Virus record (IMG/VR): IMGVR_UViG_3300037418_001301
Span: 1-64,000 of that record
Direction: 5' to 3' (one strand)
DNA from: a virus
Lineage: Duplodnaviria; Caudoviricetes
DNA: 64,000 bases
Shown: positions 14,020 to 59,174 of the stretch, piece by piece
Numbering within the stretch: the first letter of the stretch is position 1
Layout: the number at the start of each line of letters is the position of its first letter
Notes under the pieces: generated by a model
What the model saw: the letters and a program-made list of their open reading frames with translations, nothing else
The model's database searches: none
What the model was told of the DNA's origin: nothing
Made by a program: the position numbers and the translations under genes

Positions 14020-14523
14020 ATGGCTCACACGCTCAGGCCTATACCTGCCAAGATGCTTGCAGTCCTGAAGTACGATCCCGCGTCCGGCGCAATTATTAGA
14101 ATTGCCGGACCAAGGAACGCAAAATTGGGATGCCGTATGGACGCGATCGGCAGTCATGGCTACCGGAGGGTGAGAATTTGGGGATATCCTTATGCCGCTC
14201 ACAGAGTTGCCTGGTTTCTGCACTTCAAAGAGCAGCCGCCATCTCTGATAGATCATATTAACGGAGATAAATCCGATAATAGAATTACCAATCTGAGGTC
14301 TGCTAACTACGCGCAAAACAAGGCAAATTCCGGTCTGCAGAGAAATAATACTTCTGGGTTCAAGGGTGTTACTTGGAACAAGGCGAGCGAAGGGTGGCAA
14401 GCTCAATTCAAGACTAACAAAAAATGCCATTATCTTGGCATCTTCGATACTCCAGAAGAGGCCAATGCTGCATACGAAACAGCACTCAAGCATCATCTCG
14501 GAACGTTTGAGAGGGTTTTCTGA
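14020..14523 (+). CDS. HNH endonuclease with AP2 domain
   Basis: AHRVAW...IDHINGDKSDNRITNLR...N, then SGFKGV.W...WQAQ...YLG.F.TPEEA. Confidence 0.9.
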   Translation: MAHTLRPIPAKMLAVLKYDPASGAIIRIAGPRNAKLGCRMDAIGSHGYRRVRIWGYPYAAHRVAWFLHFKEQPPSLIDHINGDKSDNRITNLRSANYAQNKANSGLQRNNTSGFKGVTWNKASEGWQAQFKTNKKCHYLGIFDTPEEANAAYETALKHHLGTFERVF

Positions 14524-15135: not shown

Positions 15136-15648
15136 ATGGGCTTCGGCCTTTCTCGTAATGCCCGGAGTGTCTTGACGATGGTCAAGGTAACAAGGGCGCA
15201 AAAAATGTGGCGGTCAAAAACCCACTTAAATTTGGTCAAAAAGAACGAGGCAACGCAGATGGTTTACGTAGACGCGATTGGCCCCGGCGGAGAAAGCAGG
15301 GCGCAGCAATACGCAAAGAAGTTGTTCCAACTCAGGAACAAAGGGTGGGGCGACGAGCCAGAGGCGCTCAAGGAAGTAGCCACGCGAAGTCGCGTTTCAC
15401 CACGCAGTTTCAAGCGCATCATGAAGGGCGAGGTAGAGGCTAAGGAAAGCATCGGCGCCCGCATCAGGAATGCCTATCTCGCATATTGCGCCGAACTCGT
15501 ATCGCGTCTCCAGCATGAAATTGAAGTCGAACAAAAGGTCCACGGCGATGCTGCTGATTTTCAAGATCTGGGCGAAGAGGTGGAAATTCTGGCTCGCAAA
15601 ATTGAAGCGGCGCGGAAGCGCCAAGCCCCCAAAGAAGGACAGCGCTGA
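15136..15648 (+). CDS. Putative HTH regulator (CII-like position)
   Basis: HTH-like segment EALKEVATRSRVSPRSFKRIMKGE plus a coiled coil; start uncertain. Confidence 0.55.
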   Translation: MGFGLSRNARSVLTMVKVTRAQKMWRSKTHLNLVKKNEATQMVYVDAIGPGGESRAQQYAKKLFQLRNKGWGDEPEALKEVATRSRVSPRSFKRIMKGEVEAKESIGARIRNAYLAYCAELVSRLQHEIEVEQKVHGDAADFQDLGEEVEILARKIEAARKRQAPKEGQR

Positions 15649-16238
15649 TGACGTGCGCAGTTCAGGGATGTGAAAAGGCGGCCAAGGTAAAAGGATGGTG
15701 CAATCCACATTATCAGCGATGGATCAGGCATGGCGACCCTGTCGGGGGAAGAACGGCTCAAGGAGAACCGTTGAAATTCCTCCAAGATGTCGTCCTCGCC
15801 TATAAAGGCGACGATTGTTTGATCTGGCCATATGTCAAAAATCAAGACGGCTACGGACAAATGAAGGTCCGCGGCAAGATGGAGACGGTGTCGCGCATAG
15901 TTTGCGAGATCGCGCATGGAATGCCTCCGAGTCCTAATCACGAAGCCGCCCATAGTTGCGGCAATGGGGACAAGGGCTGCTGCACTCAAGAACATTTGCG
16001 ATGGGCAACGACCAAGGAGAACTTCGCCGACCGTCTAAAGCATGGAACCTATACTCGTGGCGAGCGGCATCCGATGGTGAAGCTCACAGAGGCAGACGTT
16101 CATGAGATTAGGCGTCTGCGAGGTTCAGGCGTGCCGCTTTCGGATCTCGCCGACAGGTTCTCGGTGACTAATGTAACGATTAGCCAGATCGCCCGACGAA
16201 AGACATGGATATGGCTTGAAGAGGAAAGGATTATCTGA
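15648..16238 (+). CDS. HNH homing endonuclease
   Basis: C..GC...GWC..HY zinc motif; DDCLIWP...GYG...SR...AAHSCGNG..GC...HLRWAT..EN. Confidence 0.88.
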   Translation: MTCAVQGCEKAAKVKGWCNPHYQRWIRHGDPVGGRTAQGEPLKFLQDVVLAYKGDDCLIWPYVKNQDGYGQMKVRGKMETVSRIVCEIAHGMPPSPNHEAAHSCGNGDKGCCTQEHLRWATTKENFADRLKHGTYTRGERHPMVKLTEADVHEIRRLRGSGVPLSDLADRFSVTNVTISQIARRKTWIWLEEERII

Positions 16239-16786: not shown

Positions 16787-17026
16787 CAAAGTGCTCGGGC
16801 TCGCTGTCCTCCCAAGTGCGAGCCTGCAAACTACTCAGCCGCGAATGGCTGAGGCTTTTATTCAAAGCCGGAGTGAAGGCCGGCCAGAATGGCGGATGAA
16901 ATGATCCCAGACGGGGCACGATTTCCATCCAAAAATTCGCTCAGTTAATGCCAATTTCGCCCAGGGCGGACCTGCTGCGGCGATGCGTTTCGGATCACAG
17001 GCCAGAGCACCGAAAGGAGAATTCAC

Positions 17027-17542
17027 GTGCTTAAGAACTTGCTGTTTTACCGCCTGTTGATCGTCAACACTGGGGCCATCCTCTTGATGGCGTGGGGGTT
17101 TACCACTGGTTATATCCAAAACCTTGTCTCGGGCGAAATCAGAGGGCTACCCTACGCCATGGCCGCACTGTTTCTCGTCGGTTTTGTCTCGACCTTCATA
17201 CGAGCGTCGAAGGTCAGCAGTGGGCTCAATACAGTCAAGAGCAAAGGCGTTTATGACGCGAGCAAGATAGCAATCAAGAACGCCCACATCGGCGACATCG
17301 GCAGTTGGCTTGTGACCCTTGGACTGATTGGCAACATCGTTGGCTTTACCATGGCGGTGTCAAAAGTCGATCTCTCCGGCGGTCCTGATCAGGCGATGGC
17401 GGCAATCGGCGCGATGATGGATGGAATGAAGTTCGCTTTCAATAACACTCTGATCGGCACGGCCCTCGGCCTTTGGACCTTGGTCAATGCCAGAATGCTT
17501 TCGACGGCAACGGCGCTCCTTGAGAAGGACGCCACGTCATGA
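17027..17542 (+). CDS. MotA/TolQ/ExbB proton-channel family protein
   Basis: Hydrophobic helices; LVTLGLIGNIVGF and GMKFAFNNTLIG motifs; SD GAAAGGAG, GTG start. Confidence 0.82.
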   Translation: MLKNLLFYRLLIVNTGAILLMAWGFTTGYIQNLVSGEIRGLPYAMAALFLVGFVSTFIRASKVSSGLNTVKSKGVYDASKIAIKNAHIGDIGSWLVTLGLIGNIVGFTMAVSKVDLSGGPDQAMAAIGAMMDGMKFAFNNTLIGTALGLWTLVNARMLSTATALLEKDATS

Positions 17543-18144
17543 AAAGCGCCGATGAAGTTAATTCCGTCGCCTATCGCGACGTGCTGATGAATACAATTCT
17601 TGGCCTTGTGATGATGATTGCCATCGTATTCCTCCTGGTGAAGGTGGAGACGTCAAGGGCTATGGCGCAGGCCGAGCCGCCTGGAAATCTCATGGTTGAT
17701 ATCACATGGCCGCAAGGTGACACCGATGTTGACCTCTGGGTAACGGGACCGGGAGAGCCCGTCCCGGTCGGATATTCGAACAAGGGCGGCGTGCTCTGGA
17801 ACCTGCTGCGTGACGACCTCGGCAACTGGCCCGATGCCACACCGTTCAACTACGAGAATGCCTATACCCATGGGATTGTGCCAGGAACGTATTGGGTCAA
17901 TGTCATGTGTTATTCCTGCAAGATATTTCCTGTACCCGTTGATGTTGAAATATCGCTTAATCCTGGCAAGGGCGAGAAAGACAATAAAGCACCCACGAAA
18001 ATCATCCTGATTACGAAGGTCATGCTCACCAAGCCAGGCCAAGAACGCACCGCAGTGAGTTTCAAAATGGACGCTGCTGGCAGGATTGATGATGCCTCCC
18101 TCAATTCCGTTTTCCGGCCGCTACGGTCGGCAAAGAAGGGATAA
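17539..18144 (+). CDS. ExbD/MotB-like membrane-anchored protein with YfaP/DUF2135-like domain
   Basis: N-terminal TM preceded by a conserved-type Asp (AYRDVLMNTILG); W...DTDVDLWV.GP...DD motif. Confidence 0.65.
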   Translation: MKSADEVNSVAYRDVLMNTILGLVMMIAIVFLLVKVETSRAMAQAEPPGNLMVDITWPQGDTDVDLWVTGPGEPVPVGYSNKGGVLWNLLRDDLGNWPDATPFNYENAYTHGIVPGTYWVNVMCYSCKIFPVPVDVEISLNPGKGEKDNKAPTKIILITKVMLTKPGQERTAVSFKMDAAGRIDDASLNSVFRPLRSAKKG

Positions 18145-18148
18145 GCCA

Positions 18149-18676
18149 ATGCTCAACATAATCCCCACCGATGTCATCGCGCCGGCATCAATCCTGCTTT
18201 TCGTCTGCGGAGTAATGGCGACCGTAACTGTCTGGTCAAGACGGGAAACCAGTTTGCGGCTCGCTTCCGTGGCTGGACTGTTTATCTCCATTCCCGTTGT
18301 CATCGCCGCACTCTCGTTCACGCTCGGCTGGCCTGTGCCTTTGATCGCTGGACTAAATGCGCCTCCTGGTGATTGGCAGGTGATTGGATCGAAGATGGTT
18401 GTCGGTGAGGGCATATATGTCCTGCTCGATACAGGCGATGTTCCGAGACATTACCGGCTGCCATGGGACAAGAAAATGTCCGACAAACTGCAAGAGCTTC
18501 TGGATGGCCAGCAGAACGGCGAGCGCGGCGATCTCAGGCTCAAAATGCCTCCCTTCGAATTCAGTTGGAGCCGCAAGAAGCCCCCGGAATTCTACGCGAT
18601 GCCTCAACCGAAGGTCATCCCTGACAAACCACGTCAGACAGAACATCCGAAACGGTACAATTCGATCGGCGCATGA
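18149..18676 (+). CDS. Membrane protein, third gene of the MotA-like cassette
   Basis: Two N-terminal TM helices and a soluble C-terminus (PRHYRLPW). Confidence 0.65.
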   Translation: MLNIIPTDVIAPASILLFVCGVMATVTVWSRRETSLRLASVAGLFISIPVVIAALSFTLGWPVPLIAGLNAPPGDWQVIGSKMVVGEGIYVLLDTGDVPRHYRLPWDKKMSDKLQELLDGQQNGERGDLRLKMPPFEFSWSRKKPPEFYAMPQPKVIPDKPRQTEHPKRYNSIGA

Positions 18677-21974: not shown

Positions 21975-22306
21975 TCACCGCCTCAATCGCCCGCGCCATC
22001 AACACGCCGAAGGGATGGCAAGCCGAATATCACTTGGCTGGCGAGACGGAGCCGCACAAGCTCTGTGACGCGCTCGGCCGGCCGCAGATATACCCGACAG
22101 CCCAAGACGCGCGTGTGGCCGCCCTTGAGGCTCTGGTGGCCGCCATGGAGCGCGCCGACGCCGCCTATATCGACCCGTTGCCGGATCAATTCTGGCTGGA
22201 GGTAAAGCCGAAGACATCGCTCGGGCTAATCGTGCAGGCGAAGAAGCGGTTCGCCCGGGTCGAGGCGGGCCGGGTTATTCCAGTCGAGCGGAGGGCGAGC
22301 GCGTGA
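21971..22306 (+). CDS. Hypothetical protein
   Basis: Coupled ORF. Confidence 0.55.
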   Translation: MITASIARAINTPKGWQAEYHLAGETEPHKLCDALGRPQIYPTAQDARVAALEALVAAMERADAAYIDPLPDQFWLEVKPKTSLGLIVQAKKRFARVEAGRVIPVERRASA

Positions 22307-23178
22307 GCAACCCGTACCTTATCGAAGGCCCAGCGCTCATCTCGTTTTCTGGCGGGCGCACATCGGCCTACATGCTCTACCAAATCCTTCAGGCGCATGG
22401 CGGAAAGCTGCCTGACAACGTCGTCGTAGCCTTCGCCAACACAGGCAAGGAACGTGAGGAAACGCTTCGCTTTGTCCATGAGTGCGGCAGCCGGTGGGAT
22501 GTCAAAATCCACTGGGTAGAATGGCGCCGAGGCAAGCCGGGATATGAGGAAGTCGGATTCAACAGCGCCAGCCGCGACGGAGAGCCATTTGCTGATCTCA
22601 TCGCATGGAAGCAACGCTTGCCGAACAGCTTCGAACGCTGGTGCACGGAATTTCTCAAGGTGAAACCAATGTTCGCGCTGATGCGGGAAACGATGGGCTT
22701 GTCCCCTGGCGAATTTCAAGAAACTATTGGTCTCCGCGATGACGAAGGAGTTCGCATCTTCAAAGGTTTAGAAGCGGCCGAACGACACGGCCGCCGTGTC
22801 GTTTACCCGCTCGCCAGCGCGAAGGTGAAAAAGCCAGACATCTGGAAATTCTGGCTTGGCGAGAACCGTGATCCAAAGCATCTCACCAACCCATTGCCGC
22901 AGGGCTTTGATCTCGGTCTCTATCCGTGGGAAGGAAACTGCACGCTTTGCTTCCAGAAGGGTAAGGGCATCCGCAAGCGGTACATCCGAGAAAACCCGTC
23001 TGAGCCAGCGTGGTGGATAGCCCAAGAGGTCAGTCAAAACGGATGGTTCGATAAGCGCGATCTCGTTTCCGAACTCGTTGCCCAAGTGCGGGCAAATCCC
23101 AGCTTTTTCGATGCCGACGACGACATGGAATACGACGTTGAATGCGGGCTTCACTGTGCATTGGAGGCAGCGGAATGA
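22303..23178 (+). CDS. PAPS-reductase-like (PP-loop) protein
   Basis: ISFSGGRTS, FANTGKEREETL.F, RWCT..LKVKP, GNC.LCF. Confidence 0.85.
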   Translation: MSNPYLIEGPALISFSGGRTSAYMLYQILQAHGGKLPDNVVVAFANTGKEREETLRFVHECGSRWDVKIHWVEWRRGKPGYEEVGFNSASRDGEPFADLIAWKQRLPNSFERWCTEFLKVKPMFALMRETMGLSPGEFQETIGLRDDEGVRIFKGLEAAERHGRRVVYPLASAKVKKPDIWKFWLGENRDPKHLTNPLPQGFDLGLYPWEGNCTLCFQKGKGIRKRYIRENPSEPAWWIAQEVSQNGWFDKRDLVSELVAQVRANPSFFDADDDMEYDVECGLHCALEAAE

Positions 23179-50189: not shown

Positions 50190-50992
50190 TTGATACCAGC
50201 GCGCTTTCTGCGCTTCTCTCCGGCTATAACAGCCAGACGCCGGCCATTGCTCCGCCCACTGTGGCGCCGACAGCGACCACAAATCCGTTTGCCAAGTTCG
50301 CAGGCTTGTTCAATGGCGATACCAACTTGGGCGATTACGCTCAAAAGGTCGGCATGGGCCTGTCCAACATGAGCAGCACGGGTGGCGATCCATATCTTGC
50401 CTTTGCGCAAGGATTTGGCGGCACTGCGAAGTTCACCACGGCAGAACAGGCAGCTGCGGCTGCAGCAAAGCAAAAAGAGATCGACAACGCCATTGCTGCG
50501 AACAAATTGGCGATGGATCAGAACCAGTTCGACGCTCGACTAGGGCAGGATCAATCGCAGTTCAATCAGCGGATGGGGCAGGATCAGAGCCAATTCGACA
50601 CTCGCCAGACACAGCAGGCATCGGAATCGGATCGTGACTATGCCCTGAGGCAAGCCGCAGACAAGCGCCAGCAGATGCTTGCCGATCAAGAAGTCAAGAA
50701 GTCCGCAGCCGAGATCGAGCGCATGGCGCGCGGCAATGGGATCACGGTTGATCAACAGCTTCAGATCGAGCGCATCGCGCAGGCTGCGGCTGAGAACATC
50801 GTTGACCCGGAAGAGCGCAAGAAGACCGTTGATGCAGAGCGTCAGCGCCTGACGGACCAATTCAAAACCGGCGATACCAGTCTCAGCAACGGGCCTGGTG
50901 TTTCCGCGCAGGAACAGCAGCCGATGACAGCAACTGGCCCGAATGGCGAAAAGCTCGTTCTCAAGAACGGGCAGTGGGTACCGCTCCAATAA
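50186..50992 (+). CDS. DNA ejection / internal virion protein
   Basis: Q/A-rich coiled coil; C-terminal TGPNGEKLVLKNGQWVP. Confidence 0.65.
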   Translation: MIDTSALSALLSGYNSQTPAIAPPTVAPTATTNPFAKFAGLFNGDTNLGDYAQKVGMGLSNMSSTGGDPYLAFAQGFGGTAKFTTAEQAAAAAAKQKEIDNAIAANKLAMDQNQFDARLGQDQSQFNQRMGQDQSQFDTRQTQQASESDRDYALRQAADKRQQMLADQEVKKSAAEIERMARGNGITVDQQLQIERIAQAAAENIVDPEERKKTVDAERQRLTDQFKTGDTSLSNGPGVSAQEQQPMTATGPNGEKLVLKNGQWVPLQ

Positions 50993-50993
50993 C

Positions 50994-53900
50994 ATGACAG
51001 ATCAAAGCTTGAACACGGTCGGCGCTACTCCGACCGATCTCCCGCCGTTGCCTGAAGGGTTCGCGCTCGACGTGCGCCCTGCTGCGCAGCCGGTAAAGGA
51101 GACGGTGAAGGATACGTTCAGCGTGCCGTCGCTGCCGGATGGATTCAAGCTCGACCAGCCGTCCGCTTCGCCTGTTGGTGATTTCAAGGGCGTTGTCGAG
51201 CGTGGCAACATCGACCTCACCAAGCGTCCCGTTGTAAAGAACGACGATGGTACGATCAGCACCGTCCGTTCCATGTCGTTCGAGGAAAACGGCAAGGAAA
51301 TCCTCGTTCCGACCGTGAGCGATGATGGCAAAATCCTCACCAATGATGAGGCGATCAACCAATACCACAAGACGGGCAAGCATCTTGGCGTCTTCGACAA
51401 TGCAGATGATGCCACGGCCTACGCACAGGCTCTGCATGATGCGCAGGACGCGCACTACAGTGCCGCAAATCCAAAGCCTGTGAATAACGCCCCGGTCGAA
51501 CAGCAGATGGAGGACTTCGTCAAGAAGCAGCGCAAGGCTGGCACGCTTGGGACGACCGATAGCCTAGACAAGAACACCGTCAATTTCGCGAAAGGATTGG
51601 GCGAAAACATCGTCAAGCTGGAAGGCTCGGCAGTTCGCGGCATGTCGTTGTTGCCTGGAAATGACCCGGTTGATGATTTTATCTATTGGCTCACAGGCAA
51701 GGAAAAGCCTGCCAATTATCCAACGCCAGAACGGGTGAACAAAGCCACCCAAGAAGTGGCGAAGCAGATGGAGAATGTCGATTTCGGGTTTGATCCCGGC
51801 GACACATGGGAGGACGTGAAAAAGGCCCCAGCCTCAAAATTCATTCCGTGGGCACTGAAGAACGGCTTGCTATCCGCTCCTGATATGGCTGCCATGATGG
51901 TTTCATTCCCTGGTTATGCGGCGGTAAGGGCGGGATCATTGGCCCAACAGCGCGCGCAAAATGACCAGCGCGAGAATGCGACCGTTGGGGATATGCTTGT
52001 TGCCCTACCTGCATCGACAGCATCAGCTCTGCTTGATCGCATCGGTGCCAAGGGAATGTTTGGCATTGATGAAGCCGCAGTCCAAAGCATGAAGCAACTG
52101 CTGAAGGAAGGCGGAAAAGCAGCGACGAAAGAGGGAACGACCGAAGCTGCGCAGCAAGTTATTGAAGATGTTGCCACGGACGCTGGCACAAAGAAGGGCT
52201 TTGACCCGAAACGGACGGCCGAGAATGCCTTGGCTTCGTTCGTTGGCGGCTCGGTGTTTGGCGGTGTTACTCGTGGTGTTGAAGGCGCAACGGAACTCAA
52301 CGCGCATGCCAAGACCGGCAAGGTAGGTGCCTCCGATCTACCCCCACTCCCAGAGGGCTTCACCCTCGATCCTACAATTCAGAAAACCGACCGTTTGCCT
52401 CAAGAAGGCAAGCAGGGCGAAACGGTTGAGACGTCCGTCCTCCCCGGCCAGGCTCCCGTAACGCGAGACGGCAGCGAGGAGAAGGTTTCGCCTCCCGAAT
52501 CCTTGCTGCCGTCCATCTCTCCTGAGGAAAGGGCTATTCTCCGCCGCACTTCCATCCCAGACGAAGATATCGATGCGATGTCGCGGCCGGAGATTGAGCA
52601 AAAGGTTGCCGAGGCCCGCGCCGCCAATATCAAAGTCAACCCGGCGATGATCAACAAGGCGGCTCAATACAGCCCGCCAGAAGCGGTCACGCCTGCGGAC
52701 GCCGCACAGCCGCCATTGATCGCAGAAGCCACTCCTGAACGTCCTGTGGCTGAAAGCGTGCCCATCCCGGAAGCGCGGCCGGTTTTGTCTCCCGAGGATG
52801 AGGCGGCACTTCAGGATGCGACGAAACAATCCGTGGCCGAAGACCGGCAAGCACAGATCGACCGTGCGGTAAATCCCGAAGTTCAGCAGCAACTTGCAAA
52901 AACCGTTCAAGACCAACTTGAGCAGGATCGCAATCAGGCCGCTGATCAAGCGCTGGCTTATGCCGAGCCCGATCTTTCGAAGGCCGTCCAGCAGTCGGTT
53001 GATGAGGATTTGAAAGGCGATGGAACACGGCAGTCTCCTGTTGTCGTCCAGCAACCGGCCCATATCGATGTCGCTGCTCAGCAGGTCAATACCGAGCCTA
53101 GCGATGCCCAAAGAGAGGCAAACAATTACAAGCACGGTCACATCAAGATTTCTGGGATCGACATAACGCTTGAGAACCCGAAAGGTTCTTTGCGATCTGG
53201 CGTCTCCCCGAAAGGCGAACGCTGGCAAGTCGAAATGCCAGCCCATTATGGGTATGCAAAGGGCTCTGTGGGACGAGATGGCGATCAGGTAGATACCTAT
53301 ATCGGCGATAACCCGCAGTCCAAGCGAGTCTATGTCATCGACCAGAAGGATTTGAACACTCGCAGGTTTGATGAGCACAAGGCGGTGCTTGGCGTCAATT
53401 CCGTCACTGAGGCGCGTGATCTCTATGCGCGTGGCTTCTCCGATGGCATGGGTGCAGACCGCATCGGCGGCATTACCCCGATGACCATTTCCGAATTCAG
53501 GAAATGGCTGGCATCGGATGAAACCACCAAGCCGCTCGCCATGGGCAAGCCGAAGGTCCGCACCAACGAAGAAGGCTTCCCGATCGACATCAATGGCAAC
53601 GTCAAGAAGCCCGACAGCCTTATTGAATTTCTCGCCCGCAAAGGTGGCGTCCGCGAGGATCATGGCGAACTCTCCGTTCTTGGCCTTCGTGACCGCAAGA
53701 GCGGGTTTGTCGTCGGCGCTGGACCACTGATCCGCCGTAACGGCATGACAGTGGACAAGGCGCGTGAGGCCGCTGCCGAGGCCGGCTACCTGCCCATGGT
53801 GTCTTCACTCAAGGATTTCTACGATGCGCTGGATCAGGACGCCCGGTCAGGTCGACAGGTTTTTTCGCAGTATGACGATGACCACGCGGCTCGCTGGCGT

Positions 53901-56900
53901 GAAGCGCAAGGCGGAGAAGCAAGAAAAGCAGAAGAAGACGCCTCCCGTAGCGAAGCCTACGACCGCCTGAAAGCAGACGGTTTCCCGGTTGACGAAGGCG
54001 CGGACTACGTCGATCGTGTCGCCGCACACATGGCCAATGGTCAAACCTACGAAGATGCGGTAGAGTTGGCATACCAGAACATCGGTGCGGAACAGCCAGA
54101 AGTCGCCGATATCCCGTTCTTCGGAGAAGACGTAAATGAAACTGTCGCCGGAACAGCACCTGTCGATCGTGCGCCAAGTCGAGCAGAAGGCGAACGCGAC
54201 CAACGATCCATCGATTCAAGCTCAATTGAAGCGGATCGCCAAACTGGGCAGGTTCGTGGCGAAGGTGGGCCGGAAGTATCGGGCAGCCGAGGCGAGCAAG
54301 ACGGCGGACGCGGCGATCAGCAAGGCACGGCTCAGCGCGAAAAGTCTCAGCCGCAAGAGCCTGTAGCCGAGCGCGGCGCTCTTCCGTCCGGATTCACGAC
54401 ATCGATGGGTTCGACGTATACCGTTCATGAGGACGGCACAACTACCCGCGACAAGGCCGCTCGAAGCACTCCCGGCCATGAAGGCGACAGCGGGCTAAAG
54501 GCTCGAACCGAAAAGACCATTTACACGGATGCGAATGCTGGCGCACTGAGCGCGGCGGGCCTGACGTTTGCCCCCGGCAGCAAGGGCGCGCGTGTAGTCA
54601 TCAGGAATGGCAAGGCATCGCTCGCTACATGGAACGTGAAGGAAAACCGTTGGGGCGTTTCCGAGGGTAGCCGTGATATCCAGTTCTTCAATGAGCCTGC
54701 GGTTGGCCGCTACCCGTTGGAACTCTGGAAGTCTGCGGATGATGTTCCCGGTTACGAAGCCTATGCGAAGATGCATGCCGGCAACAAGATCACAGAGATT
54801 TCCAGTGGCAAGGAGCCCGTAAGCGAAGCCGGAGCAGACAACAAGCAGCAACTCGTCATTCCCGGAGCAGAGCGAGCCTCTGACGCGACTATGGCTCAAC
54901 GCGGGGCAGATGCCGCCCTCAAGCCAAAGGTCGCGCAGAAGGAGCCCGCTGGGCTGTTTAGCGATGAGCGGAACCAGGGCGACTTGCTGGATTTGGCGAA
55001 GAAGCCAGCTCAGCGCGAGGAAGCTAAGGTTGAGCCCGCAGAGCCGGAAGCCAAAGCCGCCACGTCGGAAGAGCCAAAGAAGCTTGTCCCGCCGTCAGTC
55101 GTCTATCACGGCACGTCAACAGGCGGATTCGATGCCTTCGACACATACCAGGGCAAATACGGCCTATTCGGTAGCGGTGGCTATTTCACCGAAGATCCAA
55201 ACATCGCGCTCGAATACACCCGCAAGGGCAGGGGCGAGAAGCCGACGGTCTATTCCGCCAAACTCAATGTCAAAAACGCGTTGGACATGGACGCCAAGGC
55301 CGATGTTGCGGCTTGGGAGAAAGCGTTCCCAGACCATTTCGACCCGGATAACCTTCCCGAGAATGCCACCAACGAGCAGGCCTATCGCGAAGTCGAAGAA
55401 ATGCTCTCGCAGGATATGATCCCTGACTACGAGGGCGCCGAGACCATGCAGGACGGCGTTCAGAGCATGGGTTATGACGCCATCACGCATATCGGTGGTG
55501 GTCGTCACAAGGCTTCCAAAGGTACGAAGCACCGTGTTTGGATCGTGTTTGATCCTGAACAGGTCACCAATTTCAAGGAAGAGGAACGGCATTATTCGGC
55601 AAATCCAGCCGGCTGGGATACCGCTGGCGAAATGGACGCCAAGCCGCTGCTCTCGAAAGCCGATCAGCGGGAACTCGTAGATATCGTCCGCACCACGGCT
55701 GGCCTCGACCCCGAATTTGTCGATACGATCAAAATCCCCGAAGGTGGCGCAAAGGGTTGGGGCAATCTAAATTCTTCAACGGCAGCCGGCGCTTACAGCC
55801 CGATGCGCGATATCGTCACGCTTGCGCTCGACAGCGCGACCAAAAAATCCGCCCAACACGAATCCTTCCATCGCCTTCAAAACCTGTTCCTCACCGAAAA
55901 AGAGCGCAGGGTTCTGAAAGCAGAAGAGCCTCGCCTGCGGAAGATGATTGCCGACAGCACTACCTACGGGCAAGATGTTGCCGCCAAGATGAGCCGCAAG
56001 GAAGTCGAAGCGGAAGCCTACGCCATGTGGGCAACAGCGAAGAAAAAGCAGGAATCCGCGCCGAAAATCCATATCGCGCTGCGCAAAGCGTGGAACAGCA
56101 TTGCCACCATGCTTGAGCGCGTCCGCAATTACCTCAATGGGCGTGGTTTCCAGACTTTGGAGGACGTGTTTGGCAAGGCGAAAACGGGTGAGATTGCCAA
56201 GCGCCCAAAGCGCCAAAGCCAGAGCACTGATACGCAATATGCGATCACGGACGAGCGCGGCCCTGTTGCCGAACCGGATACCGGCACCGTCACTCCAGGC
56301 GCTGCCATCGGCACCCGTATCAACGATTATCTCAACGCCGCCAGCAAGGCGCTTGCCTCAAAGATCAAATCCAAGGGCAGCCGTTTTGATCGCTCAACAG
56401 CAGAAGACGGAGAAACCACCGCCCAGCTCGCGCACCGCAAGATCGTGGACTATCTCTCCCCGGTAAAGCAGATGCAGGAGAAGGTTGGCGGCAACCTCAA
56501 TGATCTGGCAAACGCCTATCAGACGGCTCGGCTGGCGGAAGGAACGATCCGCCACGAAATCCACCAGATCGATGACAAGTACGTAACGCCTGCCGTTGAT
56601 GCACTGGCAGCCGTAGGAGCATCACTGGAGGACTTGCACAAGTACATGTACGCCATGCACGTCCCGGAGCGTAACCGTGTCGTAGGGCTGCGCAATGGTG
56701 AGGAAGGCAAGCAGATCGAATTTTCGGAAGTTGATGGAACGTGGAAGATCGGTAGCGGGCCGGTAAGTGACGGGAAACGGGAGCAGTTATTCCGTGCAGC
56801 TACTGACCCAACTGTCCGCGGCGCGTCTGGTATGTCCACCAATGAGGCAAAGGACATCATCCGCGAACTCTCCCAAGATCGTGAAAAGTTCATGGGCATC

Positions 56901-59174
56901 CGCCGTGCGGCCTCGCATATCCGCGCCATGCTCGACAACTCGCTTGAGACGCAGCTCAAGAACGGCCTAATCAACAAGGAAACCTATGACCGCCTGACAA
57001 GCCAATGGCAGAACTATGTTCCGCTCCGCGCCGAAAGCGATGAGGACGGCGTAGGCGGCTCGTTCCCGTCCAAGTCTCGCGGCTTCGATGTCCGCGGCGA
57101 CGAATTCAAGGGCGCAACGGGAAGATTCACGCCGGCTGACAACGTTGTGGTCTACTCCATCAACAACGCCGAGCAGAGCGTTATTCGTGGCGAAAAGAAC
57201 AAGGCTGCCACCGCAGCGCTGCGCTTCATCAACCAGTTCGATCCAAAGGGCGAAAACATCGCACAGGTCTATTGGTCAGATCAGCCGGAGCAGTTGGGCG
57301 ATATCACCAAGGCCCCGGCCGTTTATCGCCGGGTGATCGGTTCGGATGGCAAGGTTACTCAGCGCAAGGTCAATGACTTCCAGATGCGTGACGATGTCTT
57401 GGCCGCAAAGGTGGGCGGAAAGACGTACTACATGCGCTTTGCCGACCCCAAAGTGGGCTTGGCGCTCAAGAAGATGACGTTCTCGGAATTGGGTGTTGCG
57501 CTCAAACTGGTAAAGACCGTCTCCAACTGGCAATCGCTTATCAACACCAGGGCGAATCCGGCTTTCATCCCTCTCAACCTAATCCGCGACGTTCAGACCG
57601 GCGCTACTCTGGCCCTTTCAAAGGGCTTCAGCACGGGCGAGATAGCCAAGACCGTCGGCAATATCCCGAATGCTTGGGGCGCTCTCTGGCGTCATGCTCG
57701 TGGCAAAGAAGGCAATGGCGTCTGGGATACCCGCTTGCAGGACTTCATGTCAGCCGGCGGCAAGATTTCCTTTGATCAATACAATTCGATCGAAGACACC
57801 CTCAAGAAATTGCAAAAGGACGTGGCACGGCGCACGGGCGGCAGCAAGCCGAAAGAGGCATGGAATGCCGTCGTCAAGCTGGTTACGGATCTGAACGACA
57901 CGATCGAGAACGGCATGCGCCTGGCCGTCTTCAGTGCCAGCCGAGCACGGGGAGATACGTCTAAACAGGCAGCATTCCTCGCTCGTGACCTCACCGTCGA
58001 TTTCCAGAAGAAGGGCGAAATCGCGCCGAGCATGAATGCGCTCTACACCTTCTTCAATGCATCGGTGCAGGGCAATTATAACTTCGCCAAAGGCTTGGTC
58101 CGGTCACGCAAGGTCCGCGCCGCGATGATGGGCCTGATCGTTGCCGGCTATGCGCAGCATCTCTGGAACCTCGCCATGGCCGGCGATGACGACGATGGCG
58201 AGAATGCCTACAAGAAAATGCTCCGCAATGAGCCGTGGAAGTTCGAACGGCAGATGGTGTTCTTCCTGCCTGGTCGAAAGGATTACATCACGATCCCACT
58301 CGGTTTCGGGCTCAACGCCTTCTGGCATCTCGGGGTAGAGGGCGGCGCGGTGACTTCTGGAGTAAAGGGTTTCCTGCCTGCTGCGCTCGATAGTACCCGC
58401 GTTGCCTTCGATGCATTCAATCCGCTCGGCTCTGGTGGATGGGTTGGCATGGTGCTGCCATCGATCATCGACCCGATCTGGGAACTTGGCACCAACCAGG
58501 ATTTCACGGGGCGACCGATCTATCCGAGCGAAAACCAGTTCGACCCGGCACCGCCCCCGAAAAGCGAGCAGGCGTTCAAATCTACCGCCCCAGCCTTCAA
58601 GGTTGCAGCGAAAACGCTCAACAGCCTTACGGGCGGCAACGACAAGGAACCAGGCGCGGTCGATGTCTACCCGGACTCGCTCGAATATCTCTGGGGCTGG
58701 TTTTCTGGCGGCTTGGGCCGGTTTGTCTCTCAGTCCGGAGAAACCGCGCAACGCGCTGTCAATCTGGAGTTCGAGCCCAAAAAGACGCCATTCATCCGCT
58801 CTTTCTATGGCGAGACGGACGACCAGACCCATCGCGCCGAATACTACAACGAGCGCGAACGGGTCCAATACGCCGCTGGCAAGATGAAAGAATATGAGGA
58901 TGCCGGGAACAAGGAAGACACGGCTAATTTCTTGGCAAGCCACAAGCAGGACCTTGATTCCGCCTATGCATTCGAACAGGCCGAAAAGCAGCGCAAAAAG
59001 ATCAACAAAGAGCGCCGCCAGCTCGAAAAGTCGAAAATGCCGCAGGATAAGATCGACAACGAGTTAGATCGCCTGAACGATCTTGAACTTGAAATCATGG
59101 ACGACGCCCGCAAGGAGTATTTCAAGGCTCAGCAGAAAGCCGCAGCGAAGGATCAATTGCAACAAGCGCAGTGA
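50994..59174 (+). CDS. Giant polyvalent virion protein (PPase-like, ADP-ribosyltransferase-like, HExxH metallopeptidase, LPD38-like)
   Basis: ENPKGS.RSG...HYGY..G..G.DGD.VD; VYHGT...G.G.YFTED...IVFDPEQV; HESFH; C-terminal YITIPLGFGLN. Confidence 0.85.
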   Translation: MTDQSLNTVGATPTDLPPLPEGFALDVRPAAQPVKETVKDTFSVPSLPDGFKLDQPSASPVGDFKGVVERGNIDLTKRPVVKNDDGTISTVRSMSFEENGKEILVPTVSDDGKILTNDEAINQYHKTGKHLGVFDNADDATAYAQALHDAQDAHYSAANPKPVNNAPVEQQMEDFVKKQRKAGTLGTTDSLDKNTVNFAKGLGENIVKLEGSAVRGMSLLPGNDPVDDFIYWLTGKEKPANYPTPERVNKATQEVAKQMENVDFGFDPGDTWEDVKKAPASKFIPWALKNGLLSAPDMAAMMVSFPGYAAVRAGSLAQQRAQNDQRENATVGDMLVALPASTASALLDRIGAKGMFGIDEAAVQSMKQLLKEGGKAATKEGTTEAAQQVIEDVATDAGTKKGFDPKRTAENALASFVGGSVFGGVTRGVEGATELNAHAKTGKVGASDLPPLPEGFTLDPTIQKTDRLPQEGKQGETVETSVLPGQAPVTRDGSEEKVSPPESLLPSISPEERAILRRTSIPDEDIDAMSRPEIEQKVAEARAANIKVNPAMINKAAQYSPPEAVTPADAAQPPLIAEATPERPVAESVPIPEARPVLSPEDEAALQDATKQSVAEDRQAQIDRAVNPEVQQQLAKTVQDQLEQDRNQAADQALAYAEPDLSKAVQQSVDEDLKGDGTRQSPVVVQQPAHIDVAAQQVNTEPSDAQREANNYKHGHIKISGIDITLENPKGSLRSGVSPKGERWQVEMPAHYGYAKGSVGRDGDQVDTYIGDNPQSKRVYVIDQKDLNTRRFDEHKAVLGVNSVTEARDLYARGFSDGMGADRIGGITPMTISEFRKWLASDETTKPLAMGKPKVRTNEEGFPIDINGNVKKPDSLIEFLARKGGVREDHGELSVLGLRDRKSGFVVGAGPLIRRNGMTVDKAREAAAEAGYLPMVSSLKDFYDALDQDARSGRQVFSQYDDDHAARWREAQGGEARKAEEDASRSEAYDRLKADGFPVDEGADYVDRVAAHMANGQTYEDAVELAYQNIGAEQPEVADIPFFGEDVNETVAGTAPVDRAPSRAEGERDQRSIDSSSIEADRQTGQVRGEGGPEVSGSRGEQDGGRGDQQGTAQREKSQPQEPVAERGALPSGFTTSMGSTYTVHEDGTTTRDKAARSTPGHEGDSGLKARTEKTIYTDANAGALSAAGLTFAPGSKGARVVIRNGKASLATWNVKENRWGVSEGSRDIQFFNEPAVGRYPLELWKSADDVPGYEAYAKMHAGNKITEISSGKEPVSEAGADNKQQLVIPGAERASDATMAQRGADAALKPKVAQKEPAGLFSDERNQGDLLDLAKKPAQREEAKVEPAEPEAKAATSEEPKKLVPPSVVYHGTSTGGFDAFDTYQGKYGLFGSGGYFTEDPNIALEYTRKGRGEKPTVYSAKLNVKNALDMDAKADVAAWEKAFPDHFDPDNLPENATNEQAYREVEEMLSQDMIPDYEGAETMQDGVQSMGYDAITHIGGGRHKASKGTKHRVWIVFDPEQVTNFKEEERHYSANPAGWDTAGEMDAKPLLSKADQRELVDIVRTTAGLDPEFVDTIKIPEGGAKGWGNLNSSTAAGAYSPMRDIVTLALDSATKKSAQHESFHRLQNLFLTEKERRVLKAEEPRLRKMIADSTTYGQDVAAKMSRKEVEAEAYAMWATAKKKQESAPKIHIALRKAWNSIATMLERVRNYLNGRGFQTLEDVFGKAKTGEIAKRPKRQSQSTDTQYAITDERGPVAEPDTGTVTPGAAIGTRINDYLNAASKALASKIKSKGSRFDRSTAEDGETTAQLAHRKIVDYLSPVKQMQEKVGGNLNDLANAYQTARLAEGTIRHEIHQIDDKYVTPAVDALAAVGASLEDLHKYMYAMHVPERNRVVGLRNGEEGKQIEFSEVDGTWKIGSGPVSDGKREQLFRAATDPTVRGASGMSTNEAKDIIRELSQDREKFMGIRRAASHIRAMLDNSLETQLKNGLINKETYDRLTSQWQNYVPLRAESDEDGVGGSFPSKSRGFDVRGDEFKGATGRFTPADNVVVYSINNAEQSVIRGEKNKAATAALRFINQFDPKGENIAQVYWSDQPEQLGDITKAPAVYRRVIGSDGKVTQRKVNDFQMRDDVLAAKVGGKTYYMRFADPKVGLALKKMTFSELGVALKLVKTVSNWQSLINTRANPAFIPLNLIRDVQTGATLALSKGFSTGEIAKTVGNIPNAWGALWRHARGKEGNGVWDTRLQDFMSAGGKISFDQYNSIEDTLKKLQKDVARRTGGSKPKEAWNAVVKLVTDLNDTIENGMRLAVFSASRARGDTSKQAAFLARDLTVDFQKKGEIAPSMNALYTFFNASVQGNYNFAKGLVRSRKVRAAMMGLIVAGYAQHLWNLAMAGDDDDGENAYKKMLRNEPWKFERQMVFFLPGRKDYITIPLGFGLNAFWHLGVEGGAVTSGVKGFLPAALDSTRVAFDAFNPLGSGGWVGMVLPSIIDPIWELGTNQDFTGRPIYPSENQFDPAPPPKSEQAFKSTAPAFKVAAKTLNSLTGGNDKEPGAVDVYPDSLEYLWGWFSGGLGRFVSQSGETAQRAVNLEFEPKKTPFIRSFYGETDDQTHRAEYYNERERVQYAAGKMKEYEDAGNKEDTANFLASHKQDLDSAYAFEQAEKQRKKINKERRQLEKSKMPQDKIDNELDRLNDLELEIMDDARKEYFKAQQKAAAKDQLQQAQ

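Follow-up and report, generated by a model that had tools for sequence, protein, structure and literature searches.

What could three adjoining membrane-protein genes with the marks of an ion-driven motor be doing in a phage genome? The question is raised by positions 17027–18676 of the DNA analyzed here, a window that comprises positions 1–64,000 of the virus record IMGVR_UViG_3300037418_001301, which has 75,326 bases in full and is rated complete. A preliminary description of the window had presented the three genes, hereafter g1, g2, and g3 and jointly the trio, as a stator-like cassette made of a MotA/TolQ/ExbB-type channel subunit, an Asp-bearing anchor, and a membrane partner. All three open reading frames exist as described there, including the ATGA by which the start of g2 overlaps the stop of g1, and the genes are translationally coupled. 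The trio is a real, conserved, and undescribed variant of the 5:2 motor family that is carried by a phage. With a probability of about 0.7, its products would assemble into a single small membrane machine that is driven by ions and belongs to the 5:2 “stator” type.

The first gene, g1 (17027–17542, plus strand), begins with GTG and encodes a 171-residue protein with four helices, a channel subunit of the MotA/TolQ/ExbB type. Its match to the Pfam family MotA_ExbB (PF01618) is weak (E-value 9e-4, 19.5 bits) and lies below the cut-off of 22.9 bits, and PHROGs yielded no match to it. The same family is recorded in precomputed tables for seven of 30 close g1 homologues, and the chromosomal homologue at locus L121 exceeds the cut-off with 38.1 bits. 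The best sequence matches of g1 are with ZorA: the PADLOC model ZorA1 matches it at an E-value of 5e-6, NCBIfam ZorA models match as well, and a profile of 30 g1 relatives retrieves ZorA of Shewanella from the PDB (8vvn) with an E-value of 6e-5 and MotA with 0.2. The predicted model consists of four long helices with a predicted local distance difference test score (pLDDT) of 88. A Foldseek search with this model returned almost entirely ZorA, PomA, TolQ, ExbB, and MotA (E-values 0.013–0.4), and the VIA Z scores of 10.2 for ZorA, 9.8 for ExbB, 9.7 for MotA, and 9.6 for TolQ over 133–142 residues are among the top six, although the fold alone is not decisive because unrelated helical bundles score similarly. 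Helix 3 contains G-L-I-G-[T/N]-x-V-G-F and helix 4 contains T-x-x-x-G-T-x-x-G-L-W, and these conserved motifs are those of the family. Judged by the ZorA profile match, the relatives above the Pfam cut-off, and the fold lists, the original assignment of g1 stands, and its membership in the MotA/ExbB/ZorA superfamily is supported.

The basic charge of the loop between the second and third helices of g1, which is about 25–30 residues long, suggests that this loop should be cytoplasmic. It is almost absent from the g1 protein of phage 16-3 (p038) and measures roughly 40–100 residues in chromosomal copies. The C-terminus ends about 13 residues past the last helix, and nothing in g1 corresponds to the large domains that MotA, ExbB, and ZorA have in the cytoplasm.

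The second gene, g2 (17539–18144, plus strand), encodes a 201-residue MotB/ExbD/TolR-like axle subunit with a single transmembrane helix, a linker, and a β-sandwich. The motif AYRD occupies residues 11–14, directly before the only hydrophobic helix (residues 15–33 by hydropathy), and Asp14 lies at the cytoplasmic end of that helix as in MotB, ExbD, and TolR. In the conservation table, which covers 156 relatives (98 cellular and 58 phage), the Asp is retained in 147, comprising all 98 cellular and 49 of the 58 phage copies. A single transmembrane helix, a conserved Asp, and an adjoining channel gene, by which the axle subunits MotB, ExbD, and TolR are recognized, are all found in g2. One phage subclade (L020, L023–L027, and L029) shows F-R-[A/T/G]-Y in place of the R-D of all others and has no further Asp within the helix, and its members may lack ion coupling through the Asp position.

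In the predicted model of g2 (pLDDT 78), the helix extends to residue 43 and then gives way to a β-sandwich at about residues 48–190, which is assigned to the periplasm; the linker between the transmembrane segment and the sandwich has about 12 residues. The Pfam, PHROGs, PADLOC, and NCBIfam scans gave no match to g2, and neither an ExbD/TolR domain, a MotB plug, nor an OmpA-like domain was detected with Pfam, NCBIfam, or PADLOC. Both the Asp at the start of a single helix and the β domain in place of an OmpA-type domain, as first read from the sequence, have thus held up. The family counts 1667 clusters at 50% identity among 1.84 billion proteins, nearly all of 180–230 residues. Variation is absent or almost absent at W57, D63, D65, L89, R91, D92, D93, G95, D99, N104, E106, G116, Y118, N121, E169, T171, and F175. 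The many fixed acidic residues suggest a putative metal or ligand site in the sandwich, and they are reminiscent of the calcium sites of TerD. Besides these positions, a C-x-x-C pair formed by C124 and C127 (window positions 17908–17919) is present in 30 of the 58 phage copies and in six genome copies; most other genome copies have Leu/Asn there, and the divergent clade of cellular copies (see below) varies. Possibly, the pair forms a disulfide or a metal site that is specific to a clade.

To which family the sandwich belongs depends on whether one looks at fold or sequence. TerD came first in both fold searches with g2 (Foldseek E-value 1.7e-3; Z scores of 7.7 over 131 residues and 6.9 over 133 residues). 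Only weak β-sandwich matches were found in BFVD, one of them named tellurium-resistance-like (E-value 1.2e-3), and a sequence-profile search of the PDB gave matches at chance level only. The profile alignment of g2 with TerD by hhalign reached 1.5%, and hmmscan found weak matches to TerD (PF02342) in three of 33 g2 members, with a best E-value of 0.041. We therefore rejected TerD as the family of the domain at the level of sequence and retained a resemblance in fold only. The preliminary description had called the domain YfaP/DUF2135-like, which was upheld in part. When a profile of 156 g2 domains was aligned by hhalign to nine DUF2135 proteins, the probability for their C-terminal domain was 76.5% (E-value 2.2e-5 over 70 columns; reversed control 0.2%), but hmmscan with the Pfam model of DUF2135 (PF09906) found no match up to an E-value of 10 in the 33 g2 members or in the phage genome. 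DUF2135 also marks the nearest Pfam-bearing clusters to g2 in the ESM Atlas (score 0.83), and the two domains share a W-x-D-x-D-L-[WH] start and a G-x-Y-x-V-x-V strand. YfaP-type DUF2135 and TerD proteins lack the Asp-bearing helix that anchors g2, and none of them is known to be paired with a MotA-type channel, although no search of their gene neighborhoods was made. With moderate support from sequence profiles and the predicted model, the g2 domain can be regarded as DUF2135-like with a TerD-like fold, probably belonging to neither family at the level of curated models.

The third gene, g3 (18149–18676, plus strand), encodes 175 residues. Hydropathy and charge bear out the two-helix membrane protein expected here: hydrophobic helices span residues 9–27 and 41–59 and are connected by a basic loop, so that the short N-terminus and the 116-residue C-terminal part should be periplasmic. 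The start is most likely the ATG at 18149, four nucleotides past the g2 stop and preceded by GAAGGG. A longer frame starting with TTG at 18086 was considered and is unlikely because of the aligned N-termini of the relatives. Alignment of 34 g3 relatives gave a mean identity of 22%, indicating a fast-evolving protein that nevertheless keeps LGxPKP after the second helix, AIYV, PRxYxLPW, a helix, and a Pro-rich tail with PQPxxPxK. Scans of Pfam, PHROGs, PADLOC, and NCBIfam gave no match. With two transmembrane helices and without a TonB_C or TolA domain, g3 departs from the TonB/TolA force transducers, with which it shares a short Pro-rich tail.

If the three proteins act together, their genes should travel together. 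We surveyed neighborhoods in phages and chromosomes, as the preliminary description had suggested. Among 59 phage loci drawn from isolates and IMG/VR contigs, with g2 identities down to 33%, g1 stands beside g2 in 53 and g3 beside g2 in 52, always in the same order; most of the loci without g1 or g3 are cut contigs. Of the 80 best genome loci, 78 have both partners, one has g1 only, and one g3 only, and in the divergent chromosomal loci both accompany g2 in 18 of 18. Any other gene family occurs with the trio in at most 14 phage loci and at most 21 genome loci. Homing endonuclease genes lie between the trio genes in 16-3, RHph_X2_25, RHph_TM3_3_14B, and Mesorhizobium prophages, and all three genes persist there. 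The genes are thus co-conserved in phage, genome, and divergent loci, as befits the three-gene stator-like unit originally proposed; the lack of co-conservation that would have spoken against it was not found.

The settings of these loci vary. In phage 16-3 of Sinorhizobium meliloti, the trio corresponds to p038, p040, and p042; in a 171-kb Rhizobium phage, it adjoins a tRNA cluster; and Mesorhizobium prophages have it in the rightward operon, about 3 kb downstream of a Cro-like helix-turn-helix gene and not beside the repressor. In 14 phage loci, though not in this window, the trio is directly preceded by the gene of a trypsin-like protease whose signal peptide is of the lipoprotein type, exemplified by L019:1981–2688 (plus strand; lipobox L-T-A-C) and found also as p036 in 16-3 and in RHph_X2_25 and RHph_TM3_3_14B; it fits an envelope-directed program. 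Eight of the 18 divergent chromosomal loci have a fourth gene of about 250 codons after g3 on the same strand (e.g., L148:7133–7864, plus strand), with a weak DUF3108-like match (E-value 1.4e-5) below the cut-off. Two metagenomic proteins read as fusions, P0240 (342 residues) of g1 with g2, and P0299 (372 residues) of g2 with g3, the latter frameshift-like with the last third of g2 lost. Either could be an assembly artefact, and we did not count them as evidence of binding because each is a single metagenomic cluster.

The description of the motor unit as carried by a phage is correct but incomplete, since the trio is not specific to phages and occurs beside housekeeping genes on the chromosomes of many Alphaproteobacteria. 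We found g2 in 54 of 401 sampled alphaproteobacterial species genomes (~13%, about one in eight). Two large chromosomal contigs show the trio flanked by ordinary metabolic and transport genes, and in genomes of 29–30% G+C and 1.4–1.6 Mb it lies near genes for glycyl-tRNA synthetase, a polyprenyl synthase, and a UbiB-type kinase. Within one surveyed family, whose genomes measure 2–5 Mb, a similar divergent copy was present throughout runs of genomes listed next to each other, a pattern suggestive of vertical inheritance. Some genomes have two g2 copies, such as an Azospirillum strain with copies 24 kb apart (G003:C3:494691 and 519206) and G001:C5:118932 and 2745629, of which the second is much more divergent. 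A tree of 145 g2 sequences separates three groups: a mostly phage clade of 37 phage and six genome copies, the latter probably prophages; a mostly cellular clade of 73 genome and 11 phage copies; and a divergent cellular clade of 18. The phage/genome label changes only seven times on this tree, which points to a phage lineage of long standing and not to a recent capture, and phage and cellular copies appear to be largely separate lineages. The tree is a sketch, because genomes entered the sample according to their similarity to the phage profile. Taken across phages and Alphaproteobacteria, the trio is an old, self-contained module common to both.

Within the window, the trio occupies the early/replication part of a rightward operon. 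The left part, read leftward, encodes a RecT-like annealing protein, an exonuclease, and a DNA methyltransferase. The rightward genes from about 12.8 kb comprise two HNH endonuclease genes identified by Pfam scan, the trio, and genes for a winged-helix protein, a RuvC-like resolvase, and the DnaB helicase. The resolvase, recognized by the PHROG scan, is encoded by the next-but-one gene from the trio, and the Pfam scans of seven neighbors detected HNH, winged-helix, and DnaB families only. The 240-base gap upstream of the trio does house the hairpin cluster of the preliminary description (16795–16880, plus strand), which follows the upstream gene. Its RNA fold has −49.6 kcal/mol and z −3.1 against shuffles, and it includes a terminator-like stem-loop at 16834–16853 (plus strand) followed by the T-run GCTTTTATTC. 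A scan for the sigma-70 consensus between the hairpins and g1 found no promoter. The sequence AAGGAG at 17014–17019 (plus strand), 7 nucleotides upstream of the GTG of g1, confirms that a strong Shine-Dalgarno site accompanies the hairpins, as had been noted.

Other features of this genome lie farther from the trio. DNA near-identical to the phage is present in rhizosphere and soil metagenomes, whereas no RNA run turned up. Homing endonuclease genes of the HNH, Seg-like, and AP2 types are numerous in the trio region of this window (14020–14523 and 15648–16238, plus strand) and of loci L001, L003, and L143. Directly after the DnaB gene, a PAPS-reductase-like protein (PHROG 424, E-value 1e-44) is encoded at 22303–23178 (plus strand), which may be linked to DNA modification. 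The large terminase gene lies at 34.4 kb, reads rightward, and is followed by further long open reading frames, among them a single open frame of 2743 codons at 50943–59174 (plus strand).

Known uses of 5:2 motors are flagella, Ton, Tol, gliding and type IX secretion, and Zorya, each of which opened a field of its own, and the trio can be compared with several of them. With ExbB–ExbD–TonB and TolQ–TolR–TolA, it shares a channel subunit, a single-helix partner with a buried Asp, and a third membrane-anchored, Pro-rich periplasmic protein, and its output is presumably periplasmic as in Ton and Tol. It differs from both in all three parts: in the four-helix g1, a loop of about 25 residues stands in the cytoplasm where ExbB/TolQ have a large domain, g2 carries the DUF2135/TerD-like β-sandwich instead of the ExbD/TolR fold, and g3 is a two-helix hairpin without a TonB_C or TolA domain. 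No Pfam model of the Ton/Tol families matches g2 or g3. The flagellar stators MotA–MotB and PomA–PomB resemble the trio in their four-helix A subunit with the last two helices conserved, their single-helix, Asp-bearing B subunit, and their overlapping genes (MotA of Aquifex against g1: Z 9.7, 18% identity). In contrast to them, the trio has no torque-generating cytoplasmic domain, no match to an OmpA-like domain or MotB plug in family scans, and always a third gene, and no flagellar genes were seen in the trio neighborhoods examined.

The best match of g1 in both sequence and fold is found in Zorya, where ZorA–ZorB (PDB 8qyd and 8vvn; Z 10.2 over 133 residues) is likewise a non-flagellar motor of this superfamily with a connection to phage biology. 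However, g1 with its 171 residues lacks the long cytoplasmic tail of ZorA, which has about 700, g2 lacks the ZorB-type peptidoglycan-binding domain, and the trio is borne by phages and also occurs chromosomally beside housekeeping genes. PADLOC matched only ZorA models, in g1 only and none in g2 or g3, and neither PADLOC nor the Pfam scans of the seven neighbors detected ZorC, ZorD, or ZorE nearby. Its separation from Zorya in the preliminary description was therefore justified. Searches of the literature collection used here returned no description of the trio, no paper with “DUF2135”, and nothing on p038–p042 of 16-3. Term searches of two recent surveys, of the motor superfamily and of periplasmic force transducers, found no such trio, and a paper on 16-3-like phages does not treat its genes.

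How the machine might work can be laid out by homology as far as a ring and an axle, and up to this stage the proposed mechanism is well grounded in sequence comparison. The g1 subunits would form a pentameric ring around an axle of two g2 copies, whose Asp14 would take up and release the coupling ion. Since g1 has almost no cytoplasmic domain, the anatomy suggests that the work would be delivered to the periplasm, as in Ton/Tol rather than flagella. The acidic, probably metal-binding sandwich of g2 would sit just above the ring, because a linker of about 12 residues appears too short to reach the wall. As the TonB/TolA-like part, g3 would dock its hairpin on the ring, presumably, and extend its periplasmic domain and Pro-rich tail to a target in the wall or outer membrane. 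The remaining steps are guesses: the phage would produce the trio in lytic growth to act on the host envelope, as gene order suggests from the replication operon, the Cro-like gene upstream in prophages, and the occurrence in one large phage, and the machine might keep or alter an envelope function, for instance surface integrity or the access of competing phages.

Several observations weigh against a motor of this kind. Taken alone, g1 remains under the Pfam cut-off for MotA_ExbB, unrelated helical bundles match its structure with Z scores at least as high, and curated families match neither g2 nor g3. In seven phage loci, the g2 Asp is replaced by Ala, Thr, or Gly, so that ion coupling through this residue is not universal, and we infer the lytic timing from gene order alone.

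The same components can be read as a defense. A superinfection-exclusion or anti-phage device that senses or blocks the entry of phages or bacteriocins, with a Zorya-like logic without effectors, would agree with the ZorA-like sequence and fold of g1, with the presence of the trio in temperate phages such as 16-3 and in Mesorhizobium prophages, and with the envelope-directed program suggested by the lipoprotein protease upstream of it in 14 phage loci. We consider this reading unlikely. It has to do without the ZorA tail and ZorC–E and without a PADLOC match for g2 or g3, and it places a defense gene set in the lytic rightward operon of the prophages and not by the repressor. The chromosomal copies are also unlike defense islands, as they lie by housekeeping genes, in small low-GC genomes too, and are seemingly conserved clade by clade.

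Two further readings would dispense with a working motor. The phage proteins might be decoy or poison subunits that mix or compete with TolQR, ExbBD, MotAB, or the trio of the host and disable them, in order to close Tol- or Ton-dependent routes of entry or to destabilize the envelope ahead of lysis. The lack, in phage g1, of most of the cytoplasmic loop kept by cellular copies, and the loss of the coupling Asp from one g2 subclade, would suit such a role, but a decoy would not need a complete and conserved partner set, and the phage lineage is old, with all three genes strongly constrained, the g2 domain nearly invariant, and the Asp kept in most phage copies; we regard this reading as improbable. 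Still more improbable is an ion leak or lysis-timing device that lowers the membrane potential at a set time without mechanical work. It would explain why the g2 linker is short, why family scans detect no plug or peptidoglycan-binding domain, and why the trio is made with early and middle genes. However, the highly conserved periplasmic domain of g2 and the conserved third protein are hard to explain in this way, cellular copies would be costly leaks in streamlined genomes, and the trio does not adjoin lysis genes.

Returning to the ion-driven machine, its most far-reaching form would be a third force transducer beside Ton and Tol in alphaproteobacterial phages, in which a metal-binding β-sandwich as the head of the axle and an arm anchored by the hairpin perform mechanical work on the host envelope during infection. 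We put this forward tentatively, as a possibility with the odds against it; such work could exclude rival phages, hold the envelope until lysis, or aid release. If it is true, the cellular version would be an unrecognized envelope system in many free-living Alphaproteobacteria, including genome-streamlined ones. The trio would add a further and very small version to the 5:2 motors, with two partner proteins of no described family, and it is small enough to lend itself well to structural and single-molecule studies of the conversion of ion flow into force. As phage 16-3, a classical genetic system, carries the trio, direct tests are within reach. For phages, a motor of their own would be a new kind of tool to act on the host envelope.

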